DNA of 64,000 nucleotides from Gammaproteobacteria bacterium (GTDB lineage: Bacteria > Pseudomonadota > Gammaproteobacteria > S012-40), in assembly GCA_029881255.1 (NCBI GenBank), contig JAOUMY010000005.1, positions 259,531-323,530 on the forward strand. Direction: 5' to 3'. Below are positions 11,819 to 61,474 of this stretch, in pieces. The notes below the pieces were generated by a model, which saw only the letters and a program-made list of their open reading frames with translations, had not been told where the DNA came from and did not search any database. Numbering within the stretch: the first letter of the stretch is position 1; the number at the start of each line of letters is the position of its first letter. The translations under genes were made by a program, and so were the position numbers.

Positions 11819-12274
11819 ATGGCATTAGCGATCACTCTTCATCTTTTGGCCGCAATCGTTTGGATTGGGGGAATGTTTTTCGCGTATATGGCGCTTCGAC
11901 CGGCGGCCGCTAGGGTGCTAGAACCACCACCCAGACTCCATCTGTGGCAACTCACTTTTAAACGCTTTTTCGTCTGGGTCTGGGTGTGCGTATTAGTTCT
12001 GCCACTAACCGGCTACTGGATGGTTTTTTTCGTACTTGATGGGTTTGGTCAAGCTGCCCTGTACATCCATATCATGCATTTCCTTGGACTGGTCATGATT
12101 GCGATTTATATGTTTGTTTATTTTCGCCCGTACCAGGGACTTAAAGATGCCATACGCGCAGAAGATTTCCCGTTAGCAGCTAGCCATCTCAATAAAATGC
12201 GACAACTCATAGCAATCAATCTCAGCCTGGGGATTGCAACAGTGTTAGTTGCTAGTATGGGGCGATATTTTTGA
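11819..12274 (+). CDS. Small four-TM membrane protein, CopD-like (putative copper-resistance protein D family).
   Basis: Four hydrophobic helices. N-terminal motif [14 protein letters not shown] resembles the CopD-family signature. Confidence 0.45.
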
Positions 12275-14415
12275 AATTTGTACCGGCGCTTTATTTTGTC
12301 TCATTAATTGCGCTTACGTTGGGATATTCCACAACGCTGGTAGCCGAACGCTATGCATATGAAGAAATCCCACTCAGTGATGTCATCGTTATCAACAACA
12401 GTAATAAAGTTCTCGGGCACAACGCACTTGGACAACCCACCGTTCTGATTTATACGGCAGAAAATCGATACTCGAGAATCATTGGCGACACGACGGTTCC
12501 GAACACTGCAATACTATCCCTAGCCGGTTTGGATGCAAAAGAAGTACACGCAACTGATATCAATAGCCCTGCACCCGAAGATGAATCATCAGAAATAGTT
12601 TCAGGTTGGTATCTAGACCTAGACGATAAAGAACACGCCGTAATCTGGCGAAACACCGAAGGTGCGTATACCGACGAACAACTTCCGAACTTTAAAAAAG
12701 AGCAAAACATATGTCCCGAAAGTGGAGTTCAAGGGAATGATTGCATCCTGAGAGAAGAAATTGAAGATGTGCTTATCGCAGTACAAACTTCCCAGGGTTG
12801 TGACAATAGCGCGTGGACAGATTGGGTGGCAAGCGACCCCTTCCCTACACCTTCAATCGTGACAGAATGCGACTTCCGCAGCAAAGCATACGCACTCAAT
12901 GATAATGGCATTGTTGTTGGCATTTCGATTCGCTACGACGGCACAACACGCGCAATCGCCTGGGAGGAAGAAGAAATCACTAGCGACGACGAGACTGCCA
13001 CTCCCGAAGTTGCCTATGTGGCAAGGGACCTGGCAACCATCAATGTAGGAGGGAAGATTAACAGCCTTATTGCCCAAGCATCGAAAATTAATCGACACAG
13101 CAATGAAATTACCGGTGAAATATTCAAAGAAACCGAAGCTCGGTTCAACGCAACATTGTGGTCAGACACGACCAAAGCCCCGGTCGATATAGTCAAGGAT
13201 GCTGCCGGAACTCACTACGATAACCCAATAGGCATAACCAGCATCACATTAAATGGCGTTATTGGCTGGTATGCCGACAATAGCGGCTTGATTCGTCCAG
13301 TCCGTTGGCGCCGATTTCAAAACGATCAACAGGAATTGGTTTTTGAATCTAAGGACATCATAACGCTCGAGGAAGATATCGGATATGGCCGTATCTATCA
13401 GGCCAATGATCTAGGCGAATTCGTTGGTGCCTCAGGCCTGGATCCCGCAAACTACCGAGCATATAAATTAAGTCCGCAATGCGGTGTGCAAAATCTCAAT
13501 GAGCTGCTCGCGTTTCCAAACCCTGATTTATCATTAAAAAAAGCGCTATCTGTTACGACACGCATAAAAGAGAATTTTATCGTCGCATCTGGCCAAATGG
13601 CGGACGATACAACAGAGCGTTTCTACGTTTTGAGCCCTACCAGCGTCGATATCGATCTTCAAACTGCAATCATTTCTGATCATGAGCGACTGACAGTTGG
13701 TGAAAAACACACCTATTCCATAGTAATTCGAAACAATAGCGATATTGCAGAACCCAATAAATACGCAACCTGCCTTAGCGCTAATATTGCTCCGGTCATT
13801 CCTGTAAAGCGCGACACGTCTCTTAACCCGGATCTTTCGGAAATCTATTACAAATCTGGTGGCTTAACAATAATCAGTGCCGAAGGTACCGATGGAGTGA
13901 TTTGCAATTGGACACCCATAGATGTCAATTGTTTCGTTGACAGACTAGACCCCGGACAATTTGTCACCGTCACTCTTCTAACCGAGCCGCGTATTATTCT
14001 CGCAGATCGCACGATTGCTATGACGTCTATCATTCAATCAAGCGAAAACGAGATAAAGGAAGACGACAACAAAGCCATAACATTCACGCATATCGATCGT
14101 GAAGGATGCTTTATCGCTACAGCCGCCTATGGCTCATATCTCGAAGAACATGTACAGACACTCAGAAAATTTCGCGATGACGTTTTATTGAAGACATCTG
14201 TAGGCCGCTGGCTCGTACATCAATATTATAAATATTCCCCCGAGCTGGCAGATTACATCGCGCAACATTCAGAATTGCGGATGATCGTTCGATGGCTGTT
14301 AACACCCATTGTTTGGATCATCGAAAAGCCCTTGCTATTCCTTTTTGCATTAAGCGGAATGCTCATGTTTATTGCTTTGTTGAAAACATCAGCACGACGG
14401 ACTCAACCAATGTAG
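12271..14415 (+). CDS. Large acidic secreted protein (713 aa) with a C-terminal CFI-box-type sorting domain and a terminal TM anchor. Starts at a TTG that overlaps the upstream stop codon (TTGA).
   Basis: Signal peptide. C-terminus ...[30 protein letters not shown]...[35 protein letters not shown] matches what I recall as the CFI-box-CTERM motif ([10 protein letters not shown] followed by a TM helix and a basic tail). Confidence 0.55.
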
Positions 14416-14468: not shown

Positions 14469-14858
14469 CTAGCTTCCGAGTGCCGCGCAAACTCGTTGCA
14501 GCTTTTCCCTCACTTCCATTCCAAGCTTTTCAACCTCGGGACGGTTCACTAATCCCAATACGGATTTAGGATCCATAAATCCGATAGTAACAGCACCGTC
14601 TTCCTCTTCACGAACCACGACATTACACGGCAATAACAAACCAATATCAGGCTCGGCATCCAAGGCCTGGTTTGCATAGCCGGGATTACAGGCCCCCAGA
14701 ATCTTGTACGGTCTTTTTTCCACGCCAAGTTTCGCCTTTAATGTAGCCTGCACATCGATTTCGGTCAGAATCCCGAATCCCTCTTTTTTCAATTCGTCCG
14801 CAATGCGCACTTGTGCTTCGTCGAAGCTACCGGGAAATGTTGTGCTGAAACCGTACAT
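14469..14858 (-). CDS. DUF302-domain protein.
   Basis: Family-typical sequence FDEAQVRIADELKKEGFGILTEIDVQATLKAKLG...YKILGACNP. Confidence 0.75.
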   Translation of the reverse strand: MYGFSTTFPGSFDEAQVRIADELKKEGFGILTEIDVQATLKAKLGVEKRPYKILGACNPGYANQALDAEPDIGLLLPCNVVVREEEDGAVTIGFMDPKSVLGLVNRPEVEKLGMEVREKLQRVCAALGS

Positions 14859-14954
14859 AAAAAACCTCCTGTATATTCGGGTAAAAGGACTCGCTAGAAA
14901 CTCATCAACGTACCACTACTTTTAGCAGCATGCACTCATTTATCCAACTTCAAG

Positions 14955-15398
14955 TTATTGCCTATCGTTGATGTCTTGCCAAGCATGATATACCTGCATA
15001 GGCCACAAAGACTGGAACCAGGTAATCACGTTGTCTATATCCTGCTCGCTAAGCTTATCTCGCCACGCAGGCATATTGCCATTTGGCAAAGTACCGTTTT
15101 CGATGACTTCCTTCAGCACCTTTGTTGGATGGTGCCAAGCGTGTCCAGTCCCATTAAGCGGGGGCGGGGGAAACTTCCCTGAGGCGTCAGATTCGCGCCA
15201 GTTTTCTGCGCCAACCGCATTAACACCATGGCATTTCTGACAATGCGCAGAATAGATGACAAAGCCTTTATCAACTTTTTGTCGATCAAATACTGGCTTG
15301 ATCTTTCTAGCACCTGCCGATTCAGTGTTGTCTGAACAAGCACTCATTGCCACAAAGGTAATGCAAGCTACCACAAACAACACGCTACTAATGCGCAT
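14955..15398 (-). CDS. Monoheme class-I c-type cytochrome, lipoprotein.
   Basis: Lipobox AMSACS. Single CQKCH motif. Met-ligand region NGNMPAW. Confidence 0.75.
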   Translation of the reverse strand: MRISSVLFVVACITFVAMSACSDNTESAGARKIKPVFDRQKVDKGFVIYSAHCQKCHGVNAVGAENWRESDASGKFPPPPLNGTGHAWHHPTKVLKEVIENGTLPNGNMPAWRDKLSEQDIDNVITWFQSLWPMQVYHAWQDINDRQ

Positions 15399-16008
15399 GA
15401 GGTTTATTATCTGTGTGCTCGTGGGTTGGCATTTCTTCTCCAGACATTACCGCATCTCCACCCATTAAATCATCCTGGTGTGACAAATCGGAGGAAGAAG
15501 GTTGAACATTGTGTGCATGGCCTTCGCCATGATCGTGATCGTGGCCATCACCTTCAGACTTAGGCAAAGACATGACGCCAAGTCCATATCGATATACGAG
15601 TTCTCCACCCAACCATGAAGTCGATAGCAAAGCCACCAGTCCTATGACTAAAAGCCCGTTAAACGCCCTTGGTTCGTCGTTTTTCGATCTGTGACACCAT
15701 ATCGCCCACACCGCTGCAATTCCAAATACAAGGAAAGTTCCTAACGCGACGTTTCTATGTATAGTCATCCACTCATGAGACGGGCCGTCGTGATTCACTG
15801 TGTAGTACGCGTATACTCCAGCAGCCACTGTCAGCACGCTTAGTGCCGAACCTATCCATAGGCTCCATCTGGCCATAACCCGCAACTGTAGACGAGTTGT
15901 GTATTGAGCAGCAAAATTGGAAAATAAATAAATTACGACGGAGACACTTAGCAACGCGATAGTGTAATGAACAAATACTGGATGCCAATTTGGAATTATA
16001 TCTATCAT
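15388..16008 (-). CDS. DUF2231-type four-TM membrane protein with a His-rich C-terminal tail.
   Basis: Four TM helices. Tail ...SEGDGHDHDHGEGHAHN...HEHTDNKPHAH. Overlaps the downstream cytochrome c gene by 11 nt, so the two are probably in one operon. Confidence 0.6.
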   Translation of the reverse strand: MIDIIPNWHPVFVHYTIALLSVSVVIYLFSNFAAQYTTRLQLRVMARWSLWIGSALSVLTVAAGVYAYYTVNHDGPSHEWMTIHRNVALGTFLVFGIAAVWAIWCHRSKNDEPRAFNGLLVIGLVALLSTSWLGGELVYRYGLGVMSLPKSEGDGHDHDHGEGHAHNVQPSSSDLSHQDDLMGGDAVMSGEEMPTHEHTDNKPHAH

Positions 16009-16242
16009 TGAAGCACTTATACCTTTTCACTCGATCCCAGGGTATTAGATCACTTCCGGTTCAGCATCTCAATATCACTATGGAAAAGTAATGCGCCTAG
16101 AATCGTGATTAAGTTAGCCAGCGAGAGAGAACAAGACAAAAAAAGCTGAAAAAGTGCAAATTACGTAGAAAAAATAGGCATTCTGAATTTCTTAATACCG
16201 CTATCAATCGCTAGAAAACTAATTTGTGGATGCCTCTGTAAA

Positions 16243-16573
16243 AGAAAACCGGGGAGCAAACGTTCAGTTCACACCCCGGCAACACGTGGGAATTTATTAC
16301 TAATCTGTAAATACTGACATCAGAAATTTTAAAAAGTGCCGGGAGTAAAACTCCATTTGTTTTAACATCCCGGCAACACGTGGGAAGTCAGTACTCTCTT
16401 GTCTCTTACCATCCCATCTTGTTTAAAAATGCCGGGAGCAAAACTCCATTTGTTTTAGCATCCCGGCAACACGTGGGAAGTCTTAATATCTCGTCTCTTA
16501 CCGTCCCATCATGTTAAAAATGCCGGGAGCAAAACTCCATTTGTTTTAGCATCCCGGCAACACGTGGGAAGTC
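16243..16573. repeat. Tandem array of four ~92-bp repeats (units begin near 16243, 16331, 16425, 16516). Each unit contains a long imperfect hairpin and a CACGTG palindrome. On the minus strand each hairpin is followed by ATTTTT, so each reads as an intrinsic terminator.
   Basis: Units 3 and 4 are near-identical over the whole period, including the ~34-nt inter-hairpin segment; units 1 and 2 are degenerate. Core AAAAATGCCGGGAGCAAAACTCCATTTGTTTTAGCATCCCGGCAACACGTGGGAAGTC. Confidence 0.8.
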
Positions 16574-16688
16574 ATTTATTCGTTACAGTAAATTCTAAAT
16601 ATTCAGAAAGCTACGCTTCGATTACACACAATAAACACTGAATGAGCACTGAATAGAAGGGAAGCCGCGGACGGACTACTCCCTGAGA

Positions 16689-17072
16689 CTAGGCAGATAT
16701 CGGTGGACGAATGTCTGCTGGAAGTGAAACAGTAGTGAGCTTATAAATATCTCTGAACTGGACACCAGTTTTTTTCCAATTGGCGCCGCAGAAAACCTGA
16801 ACCTCGCTAACCGCAGCTGCAATCAATTGGGTTGAACAGGTATTATCCGGTCCGTAATCATTGTTGTCGCTCACCTGAATATCAGAAAAATCGACATCAC
16901 TCAGGTCAATTGCGCTGGAATGGGAAGAATGAGAATCGTGTTCGATAGAGGAGTTTATATCAACTCGATCATGGAAAAGACAGTCAACAGATGCGGCCAC
17001 CACAGACAACGGCATCCACGCTGCGATCAAAACGCAGTAAAAGACTATAGTTTTTTTTGTAAATCTTCCCAT
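16689..17072 (-). CDS. Small secreted His/Ser/Asp-rich protein; overlaps the czcA stop by 28 nt.
   Basis: Signal peptide. Mature part [35 protein letters not shown] with two Cys. Function unknown; possibly a periplasmic metal binder. Confidence 0.4.
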
Positions 17073-20000
17073 GTTTGAGATCTTTTCTTTTTTCTAAAAG
17101 AAGGCTTTTTAAACGTTGGTCGCCATGACCAAACTCGCCTCCAACTCCCCGGCCGTTTGATAGACCCGTTAATTGCTCCGTTATTTATAGCAAATTGTTT
17201 TCCTTTCCACAAGGCATATAAAGCGGGAATTAAAACCATGGAAACTAGCGGCGCGGTGATCATTCCACCCAGCATCGGAGCGGCAATCCGTCTCATTACT
17301 TCGGAACCAGTGCCGCCGCCAATCATTATCGGTGCCAACCCGGCCAATATCACCGCAGCAGTCATCGCTTTGGGACGGACACGCATTACCGCGCCATAAA
17401 CTATCGCGCGACGTAGTTCATTCAAATCCTTGGGATCAAAATCTTTTACTGCCTGGTTTAAGTAAACCAGCATAACAACACCAAATTCCGCTGACACTCC
17501 TGCCAGAGCGATCAATCCGACTCCGACCGCTACTGATAGATTGTAGTCAAGCAGATAAACCATCCACAATGCCCCCACTAGAGCAAGTGGCACAGCGCCC
17601 ATGACCATAAAGGATTCTGCAAAATTTCTGAAATTGAAATACAGCAACAACAAAATGATTACCAGGGTTAGAGGCACAACATAAATCAGCTTTTCCTTTG
17701 CACGCAGCATGTATTCGTATTGTCCGGACCAACCAAGGGCATAACCTGCAGGTAGTTCGACTTTTTCGAGAACAATTCTTTGAGCATCAGCGACGAAACT
17801 TCCCAGGTCGCGACCTCGGATATCAACATATACCCAGCCTGTTCGCCTCGCATCTTCACTTTTTATCATTCCTGGCCCGTCGGCGATGGAGACAAAGGCA
17901 ACATTGCCCAGGGTGATCTGACCGCCCCCTGGTGTAACAATCGGTAAAGCCATCAGGTCATCAATAGAATCACGTACGTGTTGTGGATAGCGGATATTGA
18001 CCGGATAACGTTCCAGTCCTTCAACTGTTTGAGTAACATTTGCCCCACCCACAGCCATGCTGATAATTTCATGTACATCAGCGATGTTTAAGCCGTAGCG
18101 TGCGGCTGCACGTCTGTCAATATCCAAGTTAATATATCGACCACCTGCCACGCGTTCCGAAAAAACACCGGCGGCTCCCGGTACACTCTTCACCGCAGAC
18201 TCAACTTGCTCGCCGATCTTTTGTATCACGCCCAGATCAGGACCAAGAATCTTGATACCCAACGGAGTTTTTATACCCGTAGATATCATGTCTATACGTG
18301 TTTTGATCGGCATAACCCAGGCGTTTGTCAATCCGGGAAACTTCACCGTTTCATCGAGAATATTTTTCAGCTTATCGGTGGTCATCCCCTTACGCCATTC
18401 ACTGCGGGGCTTTAATTTGATCGTGGTTTCGATCATTGTAAGTGGAGCAGGATCGGTGGCTGTTTCGGCCCTGCCCACTTTACCGAATACAACATCGACT
18501 TCTGGAATGGTCTTTATCAAACGATCCGTAATTTGTAACAACTCGCCAGCTTTGCCGATTGATACACCGGTGAATGTGGTCGGCATATAGAGCAAATCAC
18601 CCTCATCCAATTCCGGCATAAACTCAGAACCCAATTCTCCATAGGGATATATCGTGGTTAAAACAACTGCAAAAGAAAGGACTACGACCGTCTTTGGCCA
18701 ATTGAGCACGAACTTAATGACCGGCAGATACATCGATATAAGGAATCGATTGATCGGATTTTTATGCTCTGAGGGAATATGTCCCCTTATAAAATATCCC
18801 ATCAATACAGGCATAAGTGTTATCGACAAACCCGCCGCTGCAGCCATGGCATATGTCTTGGTATAGGCTAGCGGGGAAAATAGTTTTCCTTCTTGCGCCT
18901 CAAGTGTAAAAACAGGAAGAAAACTCAAAGTAATTATCAACAACGAAAAGAATAGTGCCGGACCCACTTCAACCGCAGCACGCTGCATAGCAACCCAGCG
19001 ATTCTCATCTGTGATATTGCCCTTTTCAATATGTTTATGCGCATTTTCAACCATCACAATGGCTGCATCGACCATGGCACCTATGGCAATGGCAATTCCG
19101 CCCAGGGACATGATGTTAGAATTGATATTCTGATAATGCATTACGATATATGAGATCAATATACCGAGAGGCAAAATAACTATTGCCACCAATGCAGAAC
19201 GCAAATGAAATAGAAAGATTCCGCAAACAATTGCGACGACGATAAATTCTTCAATGAGCTTATCGCGTAGTGTTGTTATCGAACGCATGATGAGATCGGA
19301 ACGATCATATGTTTCGATGATTTCCACGCCTTCCGGCAAGCCCTTGGCGACCTGAGCCAATCGTGTTTTAACTGCCTCTATCGTGGTCAACGCGTTTTCA
19401 CCAAAACGCATCACGATAATGCCGCCAACGACCTCACCTTCACCATCGAGCTCGGCGATACCACGGCGCATCTGTGGGCCGATACGAATATTGGCAACAT
19501 CCTGCAGCAACACAGGCGTACCTTCTTCACTCACACCAAGCGGAATATGGCGAAGATCGTCCAGACCCTTGATATAACCTTTGGCACGAACCATATATTC
19601 AGCTTCGGCCATTTCGATAACAGAACCACCCACTTCCTGGTTGGCCCGTTGTATCGCTGTCTTCACATGATTGATATGCATGTTGTAAGCACGCAGACGA
19701 TCAGGATCCACCACCACCTGGTACTGTTTGACCATTCCGCCAACAGTTGCGACTTCTGAAACACCTGGTACGGTCTGTAGTTCGAAGCGTATAAACCAAT
19801 CTTGCAAGCTACGTAGTTGAGCGAGGTCATGATTGCCGCTGCGGTCAACGAGCGCGTACTCATAGATCCAGCCTACACCGGTCGCATCCGGTCCTAGCTG
19901 AGGTGTTGCCGACGGAGGCAAGGCCCCGGCGACTTGCGACAAATACTCGAGCACGCGGGAACGCGCCCAATATATATCTGTGCCATCTTTAAAAATGACA

Positions 20001-20281
20001 TAGACGTATGAATCACCGAAAAAGGAATAACCACGCACTGCTGTAGTCCCGGGTACCGAGAGCATGGCTGTGGTAATGGGGTAGGTTACCTGGTCCTCAA
20101 CAACTTCCGGCGACTGACCTGGAAATGAGGTTTTAATAATAACTTGTAGGTCAGATAGATCAGGAATCGCATCCAAAGGTGTATTCTTTACCGAGTAAAC
20201 CCCCCAAACTGCGAGGATTATGGTAAAGATGAGTACTAGAGGCCTATTTCGAATCGACCAGCGAATTATTTGTGCAATCAT
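17045..20281 (-). CDS. czcA: CzcA/CusA-family heavy-metal efflux RND inner-membrane pump.
   Basis: 1078 aa with the 12-TM RND architecture. N-terminus [17 protein letters not shown]... matches the CusA/CzcA family. Lys-rich C-terminal tail. Confidence 0.9.
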
Positions 20282-20391
20282 ATCTACTACCGAACAATAT
20301 CCGCCGCGTCACTATACTTAATGAATGACATCGGCATGTCATTTATTTTTATTGAATTCTTGCCGATCAATTTCCCGGAAATTGTCAGATA

Positions 20392-21849
20392 TTATCCGCC
20401 GGCCATACGCATAAGGGCAGCACGCATGCTGCTTTCAGAATCGATCAAAAACTGGCTCGATACAACCACTTCCTGATCCTCTTCCAACCCGCCAACAACC
20501 TCGATGCGATCATCCGTTTCGATACCTGCATGAATAATCACGGGCTTGAATTTTCCTTCTCCAAGGTGGGTAATCACCCTGGTTTGATTGCCCTGGCGAA
20601 TCACTGCCTCACGTGGGACAGTCAAAACTTGCCGCTTTGGACGTGCGAAAATGCTGATATCGGCATACATATTAGGTTTGAGGACTTCATCGGGATTGTC
20701 AAAACGCAGACGCGCCTTCACACTTCTGGTGCGGGCATCGAGGCTTGGATAAATATATTCAACCTCGCCTTCCCATACCTTTTCAGGCATAAACGACAAC
20801 CTGGCTTCTGCACCTTGTCCTTCCTTGACCCAATCAATCTGATTTTCGAATACGTCGACCATCAGCCAGACTGTGGACAGATCGGCAATACTGATCACGG
20901 ACTTAGACGGTGGCACAAATTCCCCTTCCGATACATTCAAACGCGTGACGAATCCGTCCTGGGGCGCATAGAAACTGACCAGTTGCTCCACTTCACGAGT
21001 ATCGTTCAAACGGGCAATCTGTTGCTCCGAAACACCGAGGGCACGAAGACGCTCCCGAGAGGCATCAATCAATCCATTGGCGCTATCTCCCAGTTCAAGC
21101 GCCTGCAGAAATTCTTCCTGGCTATTGACGAGCTTGGGCGAGTATAGCTGGAACAAGAGATCACCCTTGGCAACCTTCTCACCTGTTGTTTTGACCGCGA
21201 GCTTCTCGACCCAGCCCTCGGTGCGCAAACTCACTGTTCTGAGATTGTTGTCATTATAATTGATATAACCGACGCTCTCGATCTTGCGATATATCGTACG
21301 CCGCTTCACCTTATCCAGTCTTACACCCAATGCATTGATCACGGTCGGCGCTAAGGTCACGACGCCTGAATCGCCGGTGTTCTCCAATGGCACCAGGTCC
21401 ATTCCACATATCGGACAGTCTGCCTCCGGATCTTCCATCACAATTTCCGGGTGCATAGGACAAACAAATTTAGGATTGGAGTGCTTTTGCGCGTGCTCTA
21501 CCGCAGTTTCTTTTGGCGCTTCGTTCACAGGGGAAATGCTCTGGTTTCCAAAAGAGTCATGGTTATGGCCATCACCGCTCAATTCACTCAGCATGGCAGG
21601 CGCTGCAACGACAGGGGCCGCCTGAATATGACTAGATGAATTCTCATCGGCAGCCACCGCCTGTCTATCACCCAGCCCGGAGAACACATATATATTGATG
21701 GGTACCCCAACCGCGAGTAACACGATTGCACCAAGTATCTGTTTACGTGCAACAGATGACATGTGTCGCGCATTCGGCAGGAAAATCTGTTCCAGCCACT
21801 TAAATACCAACCAAACACCGTAGCGTGTTGTTCTAGTAACACGTTCCAT
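20392..21849 (-). CDS. czcB: RND periplasmic adaptor (CzcB/CusB-like membrane fusion protein) with an N-terminal heavy-metal-binding Cys motif.
   Basis: FVCPMHPEIVMEDPEADCPICGMDLVPL metal-binding module, followed by MFP beta-barrel/lipoyl-like segments. Confidence 0.8.
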   Translation of the reverse strand: MERVTRTTRYGVWLVFKWLEQIFLPNARHMSSVARKQILGAIVLLAVGVPINIYVFSGLGDRQAVAADENSSSHIQAAPVVAAPAMLSELSGDGHNHDSFGNQSISPVNEAPKETAVEHAQKHSNPKFVCPMHPEIVMEDPEADCPICGMDLVPLENTGDSGVVTLAPTVINALGVRLDKVKRRTIYRKIESVGYINYNDNNLRTVSLRTEGWVEKLAVKTTGEKVAKGDLLFQLYSPKLVNSQEEFLQALELGDSANGLIDASRERLRALGVSEQQIARLNDTREVEQLVSFYAPQDGFVTRLNVSEGEFVPPSKSVISIADLSTVWLMVDVFENQIDWVKEGQGAEARLSFMPEKVWEGEVEYIYPSLDARTRSVKARLRFDNPDEVLKPNMYADISIFARPKRQVLTVPREAVIRQGNQTRVITHLGEGKFKPVIIHAGIETDDRIEVVGGLEEDQEVVVSSQFLIDSESSMRAALMRMAGG

Positions 21850-21851
21850 GT

Positions 21852-23159
21852 TTATGCTTCCCCTGCCAGATATTGAAGGTCGTAGTGTGCCTTTGCCCTT
21901 TCCACTCTCAAACGCAGAGTTTGTAAATTACTATCCAGTTCTCGCAAACGCGCACGAACCAATTCTGAGAAATCACTAGTCTGGCTTTGATAGGATTTTC
22001 TCGAAGACTCGGAATACTGTGCCGCCTTAGGCAACACATCATCCATGTAAAATTTTAAACGGTCACCCAAGCGGAACCAGTCCGCATAACTTGCATCTAG
22101 CAAACGTTTTAGCTCGCGACGCTGGCCATCTGCTGCGTCCGACGCAGAATTTACCAAATGGCCTTTTGCATTCAAACGACGATTCTGTCGCTTCTCAGTA
22201 AAAAACGGCATATCTACTGACACGACGGCAGACAAAAAATCACTTCTTGGAATAACACTACCATCAGCTGAATTGACGCCATCAGCCCGATAACCGTAGC
22301 TAATATCTACATTCCAGCTCGGCTTAAATGTAGACCGTTCTGCGAGAACATCCTTGCGACTTGCGCCTAACATGGCTTTTTTTACGGCCAGGGATGGGTG
22401 GTTTTCGAGACGATGATCGAGCTCCTCAACCGTAGGCAAGGTTGGGAGCTGAGGAAACACTGTCGATAGTGCATGTTTGCGCACTGAAGCACCCGTCCAT
22501 TTTTCAAGTTCTGCGATCGCTTTTTCACGCATTTGCTGTATGTCGTCTTCGCGATCTTGAAGTAAACTCAATTCTAATTGAGCACGTATCACATCTTGTT
22601 GTTGACCACGGCCTGCACGATATTGGTATCGAGTTACTTTCACTAACTGGTTAAATATCTCTTCGCTTTCTTTTACCAGGGCAAGCGAATGTGTTTGCAA
22701 ATAAACTTCCATCCACGCTTTGCGCAAATTTCGTAAAACTGTCATTGCCCTGTCGACAGCTTTCGCACGCTCGGCCTCGGCCATTAGCAACTTTTTTTCC
22801 GTCTTTGCCTCAAGCATGCCTTTCGAAGGAAAACCCTGATTGATGCCTACTATTGCCTGCGTCATACCTTCAGAGTTAAAACTAAACGCATTGTTACCGA
22901 TTATCGGAAAATTTACCGCGCCAACGCGAAATTTCGGATCAGGCAGTTGCCCGTCGGCTACTGACTCTTCCATAAAGGACTGGGCATTTGCCTGGAACTC
23001 GGCAATGAGTGGGTCGTTTTGGATGGCAACCGTCTCAGCATCCTTGATAGTCAATTCAAGCGCGTGAACGGTATTCACGCCCGCAATCACCGTCAGGATT
23101 ACTAAGACCCAAAGTCGCAAGTAATTCATACTTCCCACACCTGTTATCTTGCTCAACAA
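21852..23159 (-). CDS. czcC: TolC-family outer-membrane efflux protein (CzcC/CusC-like).
   Basis: Signal peptide. Two helical/beta repeat halves typical of outer-membrane factors. Confidence 0.8.
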   Translation of the reverse strand: MLSKITGVGSMNYLRLWVLVILTVIAGVNTVHALELTIKDAETVAIQNDPLIAEFQANAQSFMEESVADGQLPDPKFRVGAVNFPIIGNNAFSFNSEGMTQAIVGINQGFPSKGMLEAKTEKKLLMAEAERAKAVDRAMTVLRNLRKAWMEVYLQTHSLALVKESEEIFNQLVKVTRYQYRAGRGQQQDVIRAQLELSLLQDREDDIQQMREKAIAELEKWTGASVRKHALSTVFPQLPTLPTVEELDHRLENHPSLAVKKAMLGASRKDVLAERSTFKPSWNVDISYGYRADGVNSADGSVIPRSDFLSAVVSVDMPFFTEKRQNRRLNAKGHLVNSASDAADGQRRELKRLLDASYADWFRLGDRLKFYMDDVLPKAAQYSESSRKSYQSQTSDFSELVRARLRELDSNLQTLRLRVERAKAHYDLQYLAGEA

Positions 23160-23407
23160 CTTCGTTCAGAAAATTTATACCAACGCGCAAGATAACCAAG
23201 ACGAGTTAAAGGAGACTTAACCAGACGGGTAAGGGTTGCCTAACTATAAGACAAATCTGCAATTCTTCCCCAGTCCCACATGAAATTCTTTTTTTCTACG
23301 ATTCAGACATAGTCTGATTAAAAACTATTGTTCTACTTTTGAGCCTATTTATCAACAATTCAACGGGCTAATGTAATTAATACCTCATCTACAATTTTTA
23401 TATCAAA

Positions 23408-23454: not shown

Positions 23455-23745
23455 TTACTGCATATCCAAAATGACGAACCGACCTTTTCGATCAGTGGTG
23501 ACTACAAATTTGATCTTCTGGCCAGGTTTGACTTCCTTCAACATAAAAGGGTCAGCAACTGCGAAATCCATCGTCATTGCCCCCATTCCCATTGTCGTAA
23601 TCGGGCCATGACTGATATTGAGTGTTTTGTTCACGTTATCAATTGAGTTGATTGTACCGCTTGCCTCATGCTCGTCTGCTGCAAAAACAGTAGTAAATAC
23701 CGACATAAGCATGACGATTGCAGCTGATAAAAACGTTTTTTTCAT
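23455..23745 (-). CDS. cusF: CusF-like periplasmic Cu(I)/Ag(I)-binding protein.
   Basis: Signal peptide. OB-fold with His/Met ligands (ISHGPITTMGMGAMTMDF...KIKFVV). Confidence 0.75.
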   Translation of the reverse strand: MKKTFLSAAIVMLMSVFTTVFAADEHEASGTINSIDNVNKTLNISHGPITTMGMGAMTMDFAVADPFMLKEVKPGQKIKFVVTTDRKGRFVILDMQ

Positions 23746-23889: not shown

Positions 23890-24825
23890 TCAAGCTCCCT
23901 GTATGAATTTTGGTAGCGAGGCAAATTTTTCCGCCTGCTCAAGCACGAATTCACTAAAACGCTTCGCCACAGGCGAGAGCCTTTTTCCTTCGCGATGAAC
24001 CAGATACCAGTGACGTAAAATCGGAAAGTGCTCCACATTCAATAGCTTCAACTTACCTATCTCCAATTCCAGGCGTACCGTATGTGCCGATACTATTCCC
24101 AGACCCAGACCCGCTTGAACCGCGTGCTTTATGGCTTCGTTACTGGTCATTTCCATCCTGGAGGCAGCTTCAAAGCCGTACTGCTGAAAAAATCGCTCCA
24201 TCGCTATCCGCGTACCCGAAACTTTCTCTCTGACAACAAAGGTTTCCTGCACCAGGCGCTTGAGAGAAATATTTGTTTCGTTTACCAGCGGGTGATCGGG
24301 GGGCGCAATAACTACCAATGGGTTATCCATAAAGGGTTCCGCCACAAGCTTCAGGTCTCGCGGTGGCCGACCCATGATGACCAGATCGGTCTGATTATTC
24401 TCAAGCTCATCAAGTAGCGTTTGGCGGTTAGTCACATCCAATTTGTACTGAATATTGCCAAACTGCTGCGAAAATGCAGCAAGTAGCTGGGTTGCAAAGT
24501 CGTTAGCTGTAGTCGCTACCGCGATGTTCAAGGTACCACGCCTGACACCGCGCAAATCTTCGAGCACGCCCTCTGCTTCATCTAGTAGACCGAGTATCTC
24601 CCTACTATAATGCAGCATCTCGCGGCCGGCCTCGGTAAGAAAGTTCTTTTTGCCGAACTGTTCGAGCAGGGAAACACCCACGTGATCTTCTAATTGTTTG
24701 ATCTGCATGGACACTGCCGGTTGTGAAAGATGAAGTTCTTCGGCCGCACGGGTAAAGCTCAAATGTCGGCCTACAGACTCAAAAACCTTTAATTGTCTTA
24801 GGGTTACGTGAAGCATTCGGGTCAA
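23890..24825 (-). CDS. cbbR: LysR-family regulator, CbbR-type (divergent from cbbL).
   Basis: HTH LRQLKVFESVGRHLSFTRAAEELHLSQPAVSMQIKQLE plus a LysR substrate-binding domain. Position divergent from RuBisCO is the classic CbbR arrangement. Confidence 0.85.
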   Translation of the reverse strand: MTRMLHVTLRQLKVFESVGRHLSFTRAAEELHLSQPAVSMQIKQLEDHVGVSLLEQFGKKNFLTEAGREMLHYSREILGLLDEAEGVLEDLRGVRRGTLNIAVATTANDFATQLLAAFSQQFGNIQYKLDVTNRQTLLDELENNQTDLVIMGRPPRDLKLVAEPFMDNPLVVIAPPDHPLVNETNISLKRLVQETFVVREKVSGTRIAMERFFQQYGFEAASRMEMTSNEAIKHAVQAGLGLGIVSAHTVRLELEIGKLKLLNVEHFPILRHWYLVHREGKRLSPVAKRFSEFVLEQAEKFASLPKFIQGA

Positions 24826-24990: not shown

Positions 24991-26412
24991 ATGGCAGAGA
25001 AGAAGTACAACGCGGGTGTAAAAGAATACCGCGAAACATATTGGATGCCTGACTACACGCCGAAGGACACTGACTTTCTTGCGTGTTTCAAAGTTACCCC
25101 ACAGCCTGGTGTACCTCGTGAAGAGGTTGCTGCTGCGGTTGCTGCGGAATCATCAACTGGTACCTGGACCACTGTTTGGACTGACCTGTTGACTGACCTG
25201 GATTACTACAAGGGTCGTGCATACGCCATCGAAGACGTACCTGGCGACGACACTTGTTTCTATGCATTCGTTGCATACCCAATTGACCTGTTCGAAGAAG
25301 GTTCAGTTGTAAACGTTTTCACTTCATTGGTTGGTAACGTTTTCGGCTTTAAAGCACTACGTGCACTTCGCTTGGAAGACATCCGTATTCCTATCGCTTA
25401 CGTAACTACTTGTGGTGGTCCTCCTCACGGTATCCAAGTTGAGCGCGACATCATGAACAAATACGGTCGTCCTCTGTTGGGTTGTACTATCAAGCCTAAG
25501 TTGGGTCTGTCTGCTAAGAACTATGGTCGTGCGACTTATGAGTGTCTTCGTGGCGGTCTTGACTTCACTAAGGACGACGAAAACGTTAACTCTCAGCCGT
25601 TTATGCGCTGGAAGCAGCGTTTTGACTTCGTAATGGAAGCAATCCACAAAGCTGAGCGTGAAACTGGTGAGCGTAAGGGTCACTACCTGAACGTTACTGC
25701 TCCTACTCCTGAAGAAATGTACAAGCGTGCAGAGTATGCTAAGGAAATCGGCGCACCTATCATCATGCACGACTACCTGACTGGTGGCTTCACTGCTAAC
25801 ACAGGTCTTGCTAACTGGTGTCGTGACAACGGCGTTCTGCTTCACATCCACCGCGCGATGCACGCAGTACTTGACCGTAACCCGCACCACGGTATCCACT
25901 TCCGTGTACTAACTAAGGCACTTCGTTTGTCTGGTGGTGACCACCTGCACTCAGGTACGGTTGTTGGTAAGCTGGAAGGCGACCGTGACGCAACTCTGGG
26001 CTGGATTGACATCATGCGTGATTCTTACATCAAAGAAGATCGCTCACGCGGCATCATGTTCGACCAAGATTGGGGCGCAATGCCTGGTGTAATCCCAGTT
26101 GCTTCTGGTGGTATCCATGTATGGCACATGCCTGCTCTGGTTAGCATCTTCGGTGATGACTCTGTACTCCAGTTCGGTGGTGGTACGCTGGGTCACCCAT
26201 GGGGTAATGCCGCTGGTGCAGCTGCAAACCGTGTTGCTTTGGAAGCGTGTGTTGAAGCACGTAACGAAGGTCGCGCTATCGAGAAAGAAGGTAAGGACAT
26301 CCTTACTAATGCTGCCAAGAGCAGTCCTGAGCTCAAGATGGCGATGGAAACTTGGAAAGAAATCAAGTTCGAATTCGACACAGTTGACAAGCTGGACGTT
26401 GCTCACAAGTAA
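24991..26412 (+). CDS. cbbL: RuBisCO large subunit, form IA.
   Basis: 473 aa. Form-I signatures [19 protein letters not shown] and the KPKLGLS active-site loop. Strongly biased, highly-expressed-type codon usage. Confidence 0.95.
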
Positions 26413-27380: not shown

Positions 27381-28196
27381 ATGTCTAAACAAAATAGCGT
27401 AGATCCAGATCAATACAAAGTTAAATCAGAACCATTTTATAAGCCTGTTGCCAACGAAGTTGAAATGTATGAAGCAGCATACGCGGCACGCATGCCAGTT
27501 ATGCTCAAAGGCCCTACCGGTTGCGGTAAATCACGTTTCGTTGAATATATGGCTTATCGTTTAGGCCGTCCATTGATCACCGTCGCGTGTAATGAAGACA
27601 TGACAGCATCCGATCTTGTTGGCCGATTCCTTCTCGATAAAGACGGTACTGTTTGGCAAGATGGGCCCCTGACTATGGCAGCGCGCATAGGTGCAATTTG
27701 TTACCTGGATGAAGTGGTTGAAGCGCGCCAGGATACTACCGTTGTTATCCACCCACTGACTGACCACCGTCGTACGCTGCCACTAGACAAAAAGGGTGAG
27801 TTGATCGAAGCCCATCCTGATTTCCAACTGGTTATTTCCTACAACCCTGGATATCAAAGTCTAATGAAGGATCTCAAGCAATCAACCAAACAACGTTTTG
27901 GCGCTTTGGATTTCGATTATCCATCGGAAGAAATCGAAACAGAAATCGTTGCTAAGGAAACCGACATTGACAAGGAAACTGCGCACAAGCTGGTGCAGAT
28001 CGCACATCGCGCGCGCAATCTGAAAGGACATGGCCTGGATGAAGGTATATCCACCCGTCTTCTGGTTTACGCGGGTCAACTAATACAGAAAGGTGTCGAT
28101 CCTATTGCTGCCTGCAGCATGACACTGGTTCGTCCTCTAACAGACGACCCAGATATGCGTGAGACATTGGATGCAGCCGTCGGTACCTTCTTCTAA
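27381..28196 (+). CDS. cbbQ: CbbQ, MoxR-type AAA+ ATPase (RuBisCO activase component).
   Basis: Walker A GPTGCGKS, Walker B CYLDEV. Length and sequence are typical of CbbQ/NirQ/NorQ. Confidence 0.9.
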
Positions 28197-46388: not shown

Positions 46389-46392
46389 AACG

Positions 46393-46424
46393 AAAAACCC
46401 GCCTTCTATTGAGGCGGGTTTTTG
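46393..46424. terminator. Bidirectional terminator between the receiver gene (+) and the cold-shock gene (-).
   Basis: AAAACCCGCCT-tctattg-AGGCGGGTTTTT. Confidence 0.6.
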
Positions 46425-46441
46425 ACAGAAACCGGTGAGAA

Positions 46442-46645
46442 TTAATCTACACGAACTTCGGTCGCCTGTGGTCCTTTTGCTCCATTTTCTACTTTGAAGG
46501 TTACTGTTTGACCTTCGTTCAGTGTGCGAAAACCGCTACCCTGAATGGCTGAAAAATGAACAAAAACGTCAGCGCTGCCATCGGAAGGTGTAATAAATCC
46601 GAAACCTTTGCTTTCGTTAAACCACTTGACTGTGCCAGTATTCAT
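46442..46645 (-). CDS. Cold-shock protein (CspA family).
   Basis: [15 protein letters not shown]...[11 protein letters not shown] motifs; 67 aa. Confidence 0.9.
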
Positions 46646-46810
46646 AGTGAGATACCTCGATAAGATGTTGAACTAAAAAGGTATTGCAAACATATCAAGG
46701 TAGCTTACTGAGAACACAGGGAGAGATGTGACCGAATGACCGTGATAATGTAACAATGCTCCAGGGGGCAAATTAGAGCATAAAGGGAATTCAATATCCA
46801 GCTATTTTTA

Positions 46811-61155: not shown

Positions 61156-61236
61156 CTACATGCCACCGCCCATTCCTCCGCCCATACCGCCCATGCCGCC
61201 GCCTCCTCCACCACCCATACCACCCATGCCACCCAT
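61156..61236 (-). CDS. Putative 26-aa Met/Gly-only peptide, MGGMGGMGGGGGGGMGGMGGGMGGGM. An overlapping 107-aa ORF in another frame (61047-61370) is the alternative reading.
   Basis: Minus strand reads AAGGAGGT-cact-ATG GGT GGC ATG ... ATG TAG. The SD is a perfect 8-mer with ideal spacing. Confidence 0.35.
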   Translation of the reverse strand: MGGMGGMGGGGGGGMGGMGGGMGGGM

Positions 61237-61474
61237 AGTGACCTCCTTCGGATAATGTAGGTGAATGCAGTCTGGAACTGCGCCATAGTAGCGCCTTGAT
61301 TTAATAGAAAAAAACCAAGACACTCGTTGAGTATAGACAATATATGTCTATTTTTCCAAAACCGGGCCAAGCCGATTTCGGGCAGAGTCTAGGCAGGCAA
61401 GATTAATCCAGGTTTAAACGTTGGAAAAAGGCAATATAGCGGCCCGGCTTGATACCACCAACCAAAACGATCTT

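Follow-up and report, generated by a model that had tools for sequence, protein, structure and literature searches.

A tandem array of four homologous units was found at positions 16240-16572 of the window, the term being used here for the whole stretch of 64,000 nucleotides that was analysed from an uncultured gammaproteobacterium. The array was read on the minus strand, which also carries all of the genes flanking it, and it was located between the end of a cus-like copper efflux operon (cusC, cusB, cusA and orf127) and an operon encoding DUF2231, cytochrome c and DUF302 proteins. Each unit was found to contain the box TTCCCACGTGTTGCCGGG, followed by the presence of a 13-15-bp hairpin and a T-run, the whole module being about 55-60 nt in length. 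The units are interpreted, with a probability of about one half, as tandem sibling small-RNA (sRNA) modules that would be derived from the 3′ end of the cus operon and would pair with its 5′ region. This interpretation was drawn from the divergence of the copies around an identical seed, their linkage to a single operon, the complementarity of the seed to the leader of that operon and the presence of target mimics in the spacers. Base-pairing sRNAs are typically built in this way, an invariant single-stranded stretch (12-13 nt here) being joined at a fixed point to a terminator hairpin that ends in a U-tail. If the units are such modules, the predicted transcription of the array on the cus strand and the function of the hairpins as terminators are close to certain, the pairing with the cus leader is plausible, and the units would represent a new sRNA family that probably feeds back on copper export.

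The tandem units and their conserved box

The four-unit tandem array described in the initial annotation was recovered by repeat finding, by comparison with shuffled sequence and by a covariance model (R1). A single strong array was reported for the window by Tandem Repeats Finder, at 16328-16574, with 2.7 copies of period 91, 92% matches and a score of 415. A repeat search returned three copies of 60 nt (identity 100, 100 and 93%; spacing 93 and 91), and a family of four head-to-tail members spaced by 94, 93 and 91 bp was obtained when the copy near 16268 was included. The 37-nt hairpin was found three times in the window at no more than two mismatches against 0.00 times in the shuffles, and the 18-mer CCCGGCAACACGTGGGAA was found in four exact occurrences against 0.07 expected. 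No further unit was found in the 64-kb window by the R1 model with its filters off, the next score being 10 bits.

The unit coordinates are those of the R1 matches on the minus strand, and the modules are numbered from the cus operon onward, the reverse of the earlier numbering. Module 1 (16514-16572; formerly unit 4) was found to contain the box ACTTCCCACGTGTTGCCGGG followed by a 15-bp hairpin and ATTTTTAA (70.3 bits; -20.9 kcal/mol). Module 2 (16423-16481; formerly unit 3), also an R1 match, was the same as module 1 across 60 nt, in agreement with the near identity noticed earlier for this pair, and module 3 (16330-16388; formerly unit 2) was 93% identical to both (-18.8 kcal/mol). The terminal module 4 (16240-16294; formerly unit 1) had been called degenerate, but it was found to contain an intact box, a hairpin sequence of its own with three G·U pairs and the tail TTTTCTTTT (55.3 bits), and its fold gave -20.5 kcal/mol on the minus strand whereas the plus strand gave -14.1 kcal/mol. 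Its hairpin matched that of the last unit in two of the related arrays described below (L045 and L050), and module 4 therefore looks like a conserved terminal unit and not like a decayed copy. The hairpins of the window units gave -19 to -21 kcal/mol on the minus strand, with z of about -3, followed by the presence of ATTTTT, CTTTTT or TTTTCTTTT. Four exact copies of the 18-nt box were located on the minus strand at 16553-16570, 16462-16479, 16369-16386 and 16275-16292; the box is proposed to comprise the seed and the 5′ base of the stem.

The exact 18-mer was searched for in 185,579 species genomes, and one true relative was found, the metagenome-assembled genome (MAG) JAOUJM01 (JAOUJM below); the remaining matches were mostly coding coincidences, of which about 17 would be expected by chance on a rough estimate. 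Directly after an orf127 homologue, the JAOUJM array was found to comprise two alternating types of unit, at least seven units in all, one part of it standing at the end of contig 92 and the other at the start of contig 3. An additional solitary unit was found about 200 nt ahead of a DUF302 gene. Elsewhere in the JAOUJM genome no exact copy of the 18-mer was present. Further arrays were obtained from a metagenome scan for two boxes 65-95 nt apart and from contigs encoding homologues of DUF2231, orf127 and CusC. The scan returned ten loci, four of them true (L035, L037, L042 and L043), and the others were rejected as satellites, tRNA-fragment arrays or coding repeats. At least two units were found in L035, where the contig ends within the array, three in L042 and L045, which are two near-identical contigs, four each in L044 and L047, and at least one in L050, where the contig starts within the array. 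L051 contained four units and L053 a single unit, both with a variant box.

Altogether 31 units (26 + 5) were scored by the covariance model at 36-70 bits in nine uncultured gammaproteobacterial lineages, with one to at least seven units per locus. The units were found 3′ of cusA and 5′ of DUF2231 or DUF302 in all nine lineages. An orf127 homologue was located between cusA and the units in seven of them and was absent in L053, L050 not being counted. No units were found at the distant DUF2231 loci L046, L048 and L049, and no matches to the unit were found in plasmid and phage collections. Modules 1-3 of the window were recent duplicates; the arrays of the window and JAOUJM contained recent copies with conserved spacers, and those of L044, L045 and L047 contained old duplicates. 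Five contigs (L001, L035, L037/L043 and L050) ended inside the array, which breaks metagenome assemblies, and the copy numbers, including the four of the window, may therefore be collapsed, under- or overstated.

The box was found to be invariant or to differ by one base in the 31 units, and the near-invariant sequence contained TTCCCACG(T/G)GTTGCCGGG on the minus strand, with a matching CCCGG(C/T) and a T-run (T4-T7), after which AA stood in most cases. The 18 conserved nucleotides take in the 5′ base of the stem. The CACGTG palindrome, noticed earlier in each unit, did not prove constant, since L051 and L053 contained CACGGG in its place, and CACGTG was not enriched in the window. The flanking proteins of these lineages were only 44-69% identical, and the hairpin interiors, loops and spacers were found to vary even among the units of one array. 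The arrangement is that of a tandem sibling array, in which homologous units follow one another directly, one short sequence is constant and the remainder has diverged.

A GC-rich stem-loop followed within 0-3 nt by at least four U on the strand of the upstream gene, taken as the definition of an intrinsic terminator, was present in 31 of 31 units, with hairpins of -16 to -24 kcal/mol (-9.3 in one solitary unit) and T4-T7; the terminator-like hairpins proposed earlier for the minus strand were thus found in every unit. The T-run stood 3′ of the stem on the cus strand only. The 21 distinct units contained 35 G·U pairs, and in 17 of the 21 the cus strand folded better than its complement, often by 4-10 kcal/mol, which together argue that the hairpins have been selected as RNA. 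Native arm pairs gave -18.7 kcal/mol whereas chimeras, in which the 5′ arm of one unit was combined with the 3′ arm of another, gave -14.2 kcal/mol (mean loss 4.5), and the native pair was among the best two of 16 for 11 of the 16 units; this loss in the chimeras points to co-evolution of the hairpin arms. A compensatory change from GCCGGG/CCCGGC to GUCGGG/CCCGAC was found in L047, and the seventh pair alternated between A-U and G-C. RNAalifold on a MAFFT alignment returned only an invariant 4-bp helix. With the lower stem near-invariant and the upper stems unalignable or out of register, the structural claim rests on the asymmetry and chimera tests.

A leader-peptide reading of the box (M-S/T-S-H-V-L-P-G) was rejected, since no more than 4 of about 21 units have the start codon and since the box is invariant at all three codon positions, which coding constraint cannot explain. 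An in-frame ATG was found 5 nt ahead of the box at 16571-16575 of the window (minus strand) and near position 930 of L045, 1525 of L047 and 741 of L044. The small open reading frame (ORF) M-S/T-S-H-V-L-P-G... that begins there enters the terminator hairpin; three arrays had it in their first unit, it occurred once in an internal unit, and the other units were without it.

Complementarity to the cusC leader, anti-boxes and transcript source

The best duplex of the box within the intergenic region upstream of cusC in the same genome was compared with 1000 dinucleotide shuffles for the three array-bearing genomes in which this region was available (the window, JAOUJM and L051) and for the single-unit L053. 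In the window the duplex gave -17.9 kcal/mol (p = 0.015) and was located 18 nt before the cusC start at GUGGGAAGU, on the ribosome-binding site. The JAOUJM duplex gave -17.2 kcal/mol (p = 0.026) at 243 nt before the start, and that of L051 gave -29.6 kcal/mol (p < 0.001; shuffle minimum -19.7) at 213 nt before it. Complementarity above the shuffles was thus found in three of the three multi-unit array genomes, and together with the position of the array it would fit an autoregulatory sRNA from a 3′ untranslated region (UTR), provided that the site is transcribed and the RNA processed. Complements of the box elsewhere in the window were at chance level apart from the array (22 at no more than three mismatches against 17 expected).

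Two sites were recognised upstream of cusC in the window, both on the minus strand. The distal site TTCATGTGGGA (23274-23284), about 150 nt before the start, would pair through CAUGUGGGA with UCCCACGUG of the box by nine pairs including one G·U (-15 kcal/mol). The proximal site GTGGGAAGT (23130-23138), directly before the ATG at 23129-23127 and overlapping the ribosome-binding site, was a perfect 9-nt complement of ACUUCCCAC of the box; it was not conserved in JAOUJM. The cusC upstream regions of the window and JAOUJM aligned poorly, and the longest block of invariant columns between them took in the distal site and covered TTCATGTGGG, which can pair with the box if one G·U is allowed.

The box of L051, CCCACGGG, contained CACGGG, and opposite its U-to-G change the leader, CCCGUGGG, showed the fitting change from A to C. 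In L051 the flank UUUACC, specific to this lineage, was also able to pair with GGGGUAA, giving 16 contiguous pairs at about -30 kcal/mol (-30.5 and -29.6). This site was by far the best non-self site in 19 kb (-30.5 against -22.0 kcal/mol for the next), and the seeds of the other lineages were 10-13 kcal/mol weaker on the L051 leader. The internal non-Watson-Crick positions of the three helices were all G·U, a count biased by the way in which the helices were delimited. A -10-like hexamer (GATAAT, AAGAAT or GTGAAT) was found 4-8 nt 5′ of the leader motif in the three genomes, and the motif may therefore stand at the very 5′ end of the mRNA or within the promoter.

Many internal spacers were found to contain an anti-box, complementary to the box, directly after the T-run (AACAUGAUGGGA in the window). 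The anti-box AACATGATGGGA (16504-16515, minus strand), directly after the T-run of module 1, formed 11 pairs and one bulge with the box, at -14.3 kcal/mol (p = 0.004; mean of the shuffles -6.9), followed by a weaker one after module 2, AAACAAGATGGGA (16412-16424, minus strand; -10.5 kcal/mol, p = 0.08). Anti-boxes were also found in JAOUJM (AACACGGGAAU and AACAGGGGAAG), L035 (GCGAUGGGA), L045 (AACACAAUGGG) and, by reading of the sequence, L051 (AAGUGGGGAUAAC). Against shuffled spacers the individual p values ranged from 0.004 to 0.9, and a rough Fisher combination over about 13 independent spacers gave about 1e-4. No anti-box was found after the last unit of any array. An anti-box is transcribed only when the terminator before it is read through, and it would then mask the seed of that module or of the next one.

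Module 1 was found to be the first intrinsic-terminator-like site 3′ of cusCBA-orf127, and the array contained the only such sites after cusA. The cus transcripts should therefore end in the array or run into it, and the modules are most likely made from the 3′ end of the operon. Between positions -45 and -1 before the box no position exceeded 0.75 bit, and the best -10-like hexamers were scattered; no sigma-70 promoter was positionally conserved before the units. In L047 the next box followed the T-run after 21 and 25 nt, and in L044 after 26 nt, within spacers of 21-45 nt, and distances of 21-26 nt leave no room for a separate sigma-70 promoter. Each unit is thus probably not a separate gene. 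An array of small RNA genes, one of three options in the initial annotation, came closest to the evidence, although with no conserved promoter and short spacers its separate gene for every unit is doubtful. A sigma-54 reading of CCCACGTGTTGC was rejected by inspection, the GG/GC spacing being wrong and GG being absent.

A candidate activator-dependent promoter was recognised just upstream of the array at 16621-16654 (minus strand), where two copies of ATTCAGTG (16636-16643 and 16647-16654) with an 11-bp period were followed by the presence of TGTAAT (16621-16626); it was not called by a sigma-70 two-hexamer scan. The direct repeat ATTCAGTG-N3-(A/G)TTCAGTN was common to the window, L044, L045 and L047, between the orf127 stop and the first box, followed by a hexamer resembling TGTAAT or TTCAAT. 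An 8-3-8 palindrome, AATCAGAC-TAT-GTCTGAAT, was found upstream of cusC at about 23301-23319 (minus strand). The half-site ATTCAG is common to this palindrome and to the repeat upstream of the array, which hints at one regulator for both.

In the mechanism proposed here, each module, transcribed on the cus strand, would join a short unpaired seed, (C)UUCCCACGUGUU, directly to an intrinsic terminator hairpin that ends in a U-tail. The candidate promoter just upstream of the array would perhaps be an extra source besides the operon transcript. Termination would be partial, and read-through with processing would yield the later modules. The seed would pair with the 5′ region of the cus mRNA at CAUGUGGGA, about 150 nt upstream of cusC, and at GUGGGAAGU on the cusC ribosome-binding site, and this pairing would exert post-transcriptional feedback on copper efflux. 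The anti-box would act as a target mimic that masks the seed of a read-through module, and only the 3′-terminal module of any transcript would keep its seed free. The fuller picture of a self-contained 3′ RNA feedback device, with one exposed seed per transcript, masked read-through modules and a strength tuned by the copy number (1 to at least 7, with quick change from lineage to lineage), is tentative and rather unlikely as a whole.

Several results weigh against the sibling-sRNA interpretation. Elements resembling -10 and -35 hexamers showed no positional conservation before the individual units, and efficient terminators would allow the downstream modules to be made only rarely. The single-unit L053 was found to contain no significant site (best duplex -13.1 kcal/mol at 67 nt before the cusC start, p = 0.2). 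The position of the site varied: it coincided with the ribosome-binding site in the window alone and stood 213-243 nt before cusC in L051 and JAOUJM, and the helices of the window and JAOUJM were short (9-10 pairs) and ranked about third to sixth among the non-self sites of their own loci. The seed is partly self-complementary (CACGUG) in most lineages. A promoter location of the leader motif, with a DNA-binding protein recognising both places, would explain the same co-variation. In the covariation analysis of homologous arrays that had been suggested as a check, the column-wise counts in the covariance-model alignment (73.8% paired against 72.6% shuffled) were not above the control, and the support for the hairpins comes from the chimera test and the G·U and strand asymmetry.

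The protein named in the penultimate point is one form of a wider alternative, in which the box is a binding site either for an RNA-binding antitermination or processing factor or for a DNA-binding metal regulator reading CCCACG(T/G)G; in the latter case the array would be an operator or decoy cluster with the same site at the cus promoter. Such a site is unlikely, though it would suit the footprint-like span of the conservation, which takes in the single-stranded box together with six bases at the start of the stem that never co-vary, and the leader motif close behind a -10-like hexamer in three genomes could be an operator at the start of transcription. A reverse complement is the same DNA site, so that the co-variation of box and leader fits equally, and the cus operon has no regulator gene adjoining it. 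A DNA operator, however, would have no need of the RNA-selected hairpin and T-run to which the box is always fused with zero spacing. The differences between the box complement and the leader are all wobble-compatible, as RNA pairing would predict and a common DNA consensus would not, and the 16 contiguous pairs of L051 reach into a lineage-specific flank, a long stretch for an operator common to both places. A reiterated terminator or insulator that shields DUF2231 and DUF302 from a strongly induced cus transcript, with no role in trans, is quite improbable. The array does lie between two co-directional operons and holds the only terminator-like sites 3′ of cusA, a conserved -10-like element serving DUF2231 alone stands beyond the array, and L053 manages with one unit. 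Yet termination needs no invariant 12-nt upstream sequence across lineages with 44-69% identical flanking proteins, and both the anti-boxes and the complementarity to the cus leader would be left unexplained.

Serial cis-acting attenuators in the 5′ leader of DUF2231-cytochrome c-DUF302, forming a tight, cooperative switch, are held to be decidedly improbable. They would account for the constant position of the units 5′ of DUF2231 or DUF302, including the solitary JAOUJM unit and the single unit of L053, for the box abutting the 5′ arm of the terminator, which is the position of the antiterminator site in known systems, and for the in-frame ATG of the first unit in three arrays with its short ORF running into the hairpin. 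The mini-ORF is lacking in most units, however, the only candidate for a conserved antiterminator structure is a 4-bp UCCC/GGGA helix, a conserved promoter-like element stands between the array and DUF2231, and the unit is linked no less faithfully to cusA than to the downstream genes. A selfish REP-, MITE- or BIME-like repeat amplified here by chance is extremely improbable. Box and anti-box do form inverted repeats around the hairpin, as at a MITE terminus, and at least seven dispersed GC-rich two-hairpin REP-like copies (L009, L011, L012, L015, L018, L025 and L028) with exactly the same 18-mer, TTCCCACGTGTTGCCGGG, between their hairpins were found in the Planctomycetaceae MAG CAZFMS01. That element scored only 18-25 bits with the unit model and lacks the hairpin architecture of the unit; it was rejected as a relative and is probably an odd coincidence. 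The units themselves are confined to a single syntenic locus in the nine lineages, every copy being arranged as a direct repeat, and no anti-box follows the last units. Neither the REP-like family offered in the initial annotation nor the dispersed multi-copy repeat named there as refuting sRNA genes was encountered in the window, in JAOUJM (exact 18-mer) or among plasmids and phages.

The cus operon and its neighbourhood

The upstream operon (16689-23159, minus strand), annotated with Pfam and NCBIfam, was found to contain cusC (21852-23129), cusB (20392-21849), cusA (17045-20281) and orf127 (16689-17072), and cusF (23455-23745, minus strand; CusF_Ec match) was located further upstream with its own terminator. 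The downstream operon (14469-16008, minus strand) was found to contain DUF2231 (15388-16008), cytochrome c (14955-15398) and DUF302 (14469-14858) genes. The array had rightly been placed between a metal-efflux operon and a DUF2231/cytochrome c operon; the label czc did not hold, the CusF_Ec match, CusB as best match and a CusA/CzcA-family pump indicating a cus-like operon. A conserved -10-like element, GTG(G/A)T(G/C)TAAT (GTGGTGTAAT), was found about 55 nt ahead of the DUF2231 start, downstream of the array. No metal regulator gene was found adjoining the cus operon in the window or in JAOUJM.

The product of orf127 was a secreted protein of 127 amino acids with a signal peptide, a C-x-F-H motif and a C-terminal IRPPI, and its gene overlapped the end of cusA by 28 nt. 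No Pfam or NCBIfam domain was found in it. Its homologues after cusA in seven lineages included those at 11939-12316 of L043, 145-540 of L044, 491-802 of L045 and 14989-15348 of L051, and the protein may serve this cus system in an accessory role that is as yet uncharacterised. The 12-mer GGTAGTCCGTCC was found directly 3′ of the orf127 stop in four lineages (about 16668-16680 of the window on the minus strand, about 544-556 of L044, L035, and about 7650 of L031).

A form I RuBisCO large subunit (24991-26412, plus strand), a CbbR-like regulator (23890-24825, minus strand) and a CbbQ/GvpN-like ATPase (27381-28196, plus strand) were encoded beside the cus cluster, which marks the host as an autotroph. 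A protein of 714 amino acids without known domain (12271-14415, plus strand) was encoded after a weak CopD-like membrane protein (11819-12274, plus strand), and a similar pair, of an 849-894-amino-acid protein and CopD, was found beside DUF302 in L051 and L053; the pair appears to belong to this conserved copper neighbourhood as well. Rfam returned a single family for the window, the cspA thermoregulator (46391-46736, minus strand; 81 bits against a gathering threshold of 78). A tandem repeat of period 33 with sub-periods of 9 and 12 nt (CATGCCACCGCC...; score 101), located at 61159-61237, is probably coding.

Comparison with known systems

No Rfam match was found at the array, either with gathering thresholds over the whole window or at E <= 10 over the region. 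A CRISPR array, with repeats of 21-48 bp, unique spacers and usually cas genes, had already been discounted in the initial annotation, and it was rejected here likewise on the ~91-bp units, the repeated inter-repeat segments and neighbours without cas. Type III toxin-antitoxin repeats of the ToxI kind (about 36 nt, near-identical, upstream of an endoribonuclease toxin) were rejected on the 75-95-bp units with divergent interiors and on the downstream genes, which encode DUF2231, cytochrome c and DUF302. Membership of a tandem riboswitch or attenuator class was rejected, with no Rfam match and the 4-bp UCCC/GGGA helix as the only conserved alternative structure, and so was that of REP, BIME or MITE elements, which occur in many dispersed copies, the units being four in 64 kb and the exact 18-mer of JAOUJM being confined to the locus. 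Ordinary tandem intrinsic terminators share the repeated GC-rich stem and U-run after an operon, but they have no invariant upstream box and no family conservation across genomes, both of which are present here.

The regulation of cus and czc efflux is, to our knowledge, understood almost entirely as transcriptional, through two-component systems and MerR- or CsoR-type sensors, whereas the present cus operon was found with no adjoining regulator gene and instead with a conserved 3′ RNA element complementary to its own 5′ end. If the sibling-sRNA interpretation is true, the units would form a new sRNA family in uncultured sediment chemolithoautotrophs and a natural case where the dosage of an sRNA is shaped by the number of repeats and by target mimics inside the array itself. 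With its defined seed and a length of only about 57 nt, the module would then also be attractive as a small component for synthetic regulation.

Sibling sRNAs in several copies, frequently arranged in tandem, include LhrC1-4 of Listeria, Qrr and PrrF1/2, in which an identical C-rich (UCCC) seed targets Shine-Dalgarno-like sequences and the rest diverges. Each of these is a separate gene under a regulated promoter of its own, with an RNA of about 100 nt or more, and none is known to be linked to a metal-efflux operon. NsiR1 of heterocystous cyanobacteria occurs in tandem copies, each an sRNA of about 60 nt, beside a functionally related gene (PMC4030482). The tandem layout is similar, but each NsiR1 copy has its own promoter of about 70 nt with a conserved DIF motif, whereas the spacers here are of 21-45 nt with no conserved promoter element. 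An array of NsiR1 or LhrC type, with a promoter in every repeat, was accordingly rejected on the missing promoter and on the distances of 21-26 nt from T-run to box in L047 and L044.

The CcsR1-4 or cuckoo sRNAs of Rhodobacter sphaeroides are four homologous tandem sRNAs released by RNase E from the 3′ UTR of ccaF1; they are co-transcribed directly after this small ORF, and each contains a conserved C/U-rich pairing motif (PMC8034643). The likeness lies in the four homologous units in tandem directly after a small ORF. The CcsR units, however, contain two hairpins with CCUCCUCCC in the loops, whereas a linear UUCCCACGUGUU stands 5′ of a single terminator hairpin here. Their upstream ORF encodes a DUF1127 RNA-binding protein, whereas the one here encodes a secreted protein without Pfam domain that closes cusCBA, and their host belongs to another phylogenetic class. 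Membership of the Cuckoo family (Rfam ar14/CcsR) was rejected, the motif being absent, the hairpin single and the array without Rfam match even at E <= 10.

OppZ and CarZ of Vibrio cholerae are 3′-UTR sRNAs that pair with and repress the mRNA of their own operon (PMC7398697). They resemble the proposed modules in that the sRNA shares the operon terminator, pairs with its own operon mRNA and feeds back on it, features that are predicted from sequence in the present case. OppZ and CarZ are single-copy and pair at internal translation-initiation regions, and their processing and effect were demonstrated experimentally, both of which are predicted for the units described here, which form arrays. 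With other motifs, another architecture and no Rfam match, the array is, as judged from its sequence, a member of none of the CcsR, OppZ/CarZ and NsiR1 families, and if the proposed pairing is true it would present operon autoregulation by 3′-end RNAs in array form.

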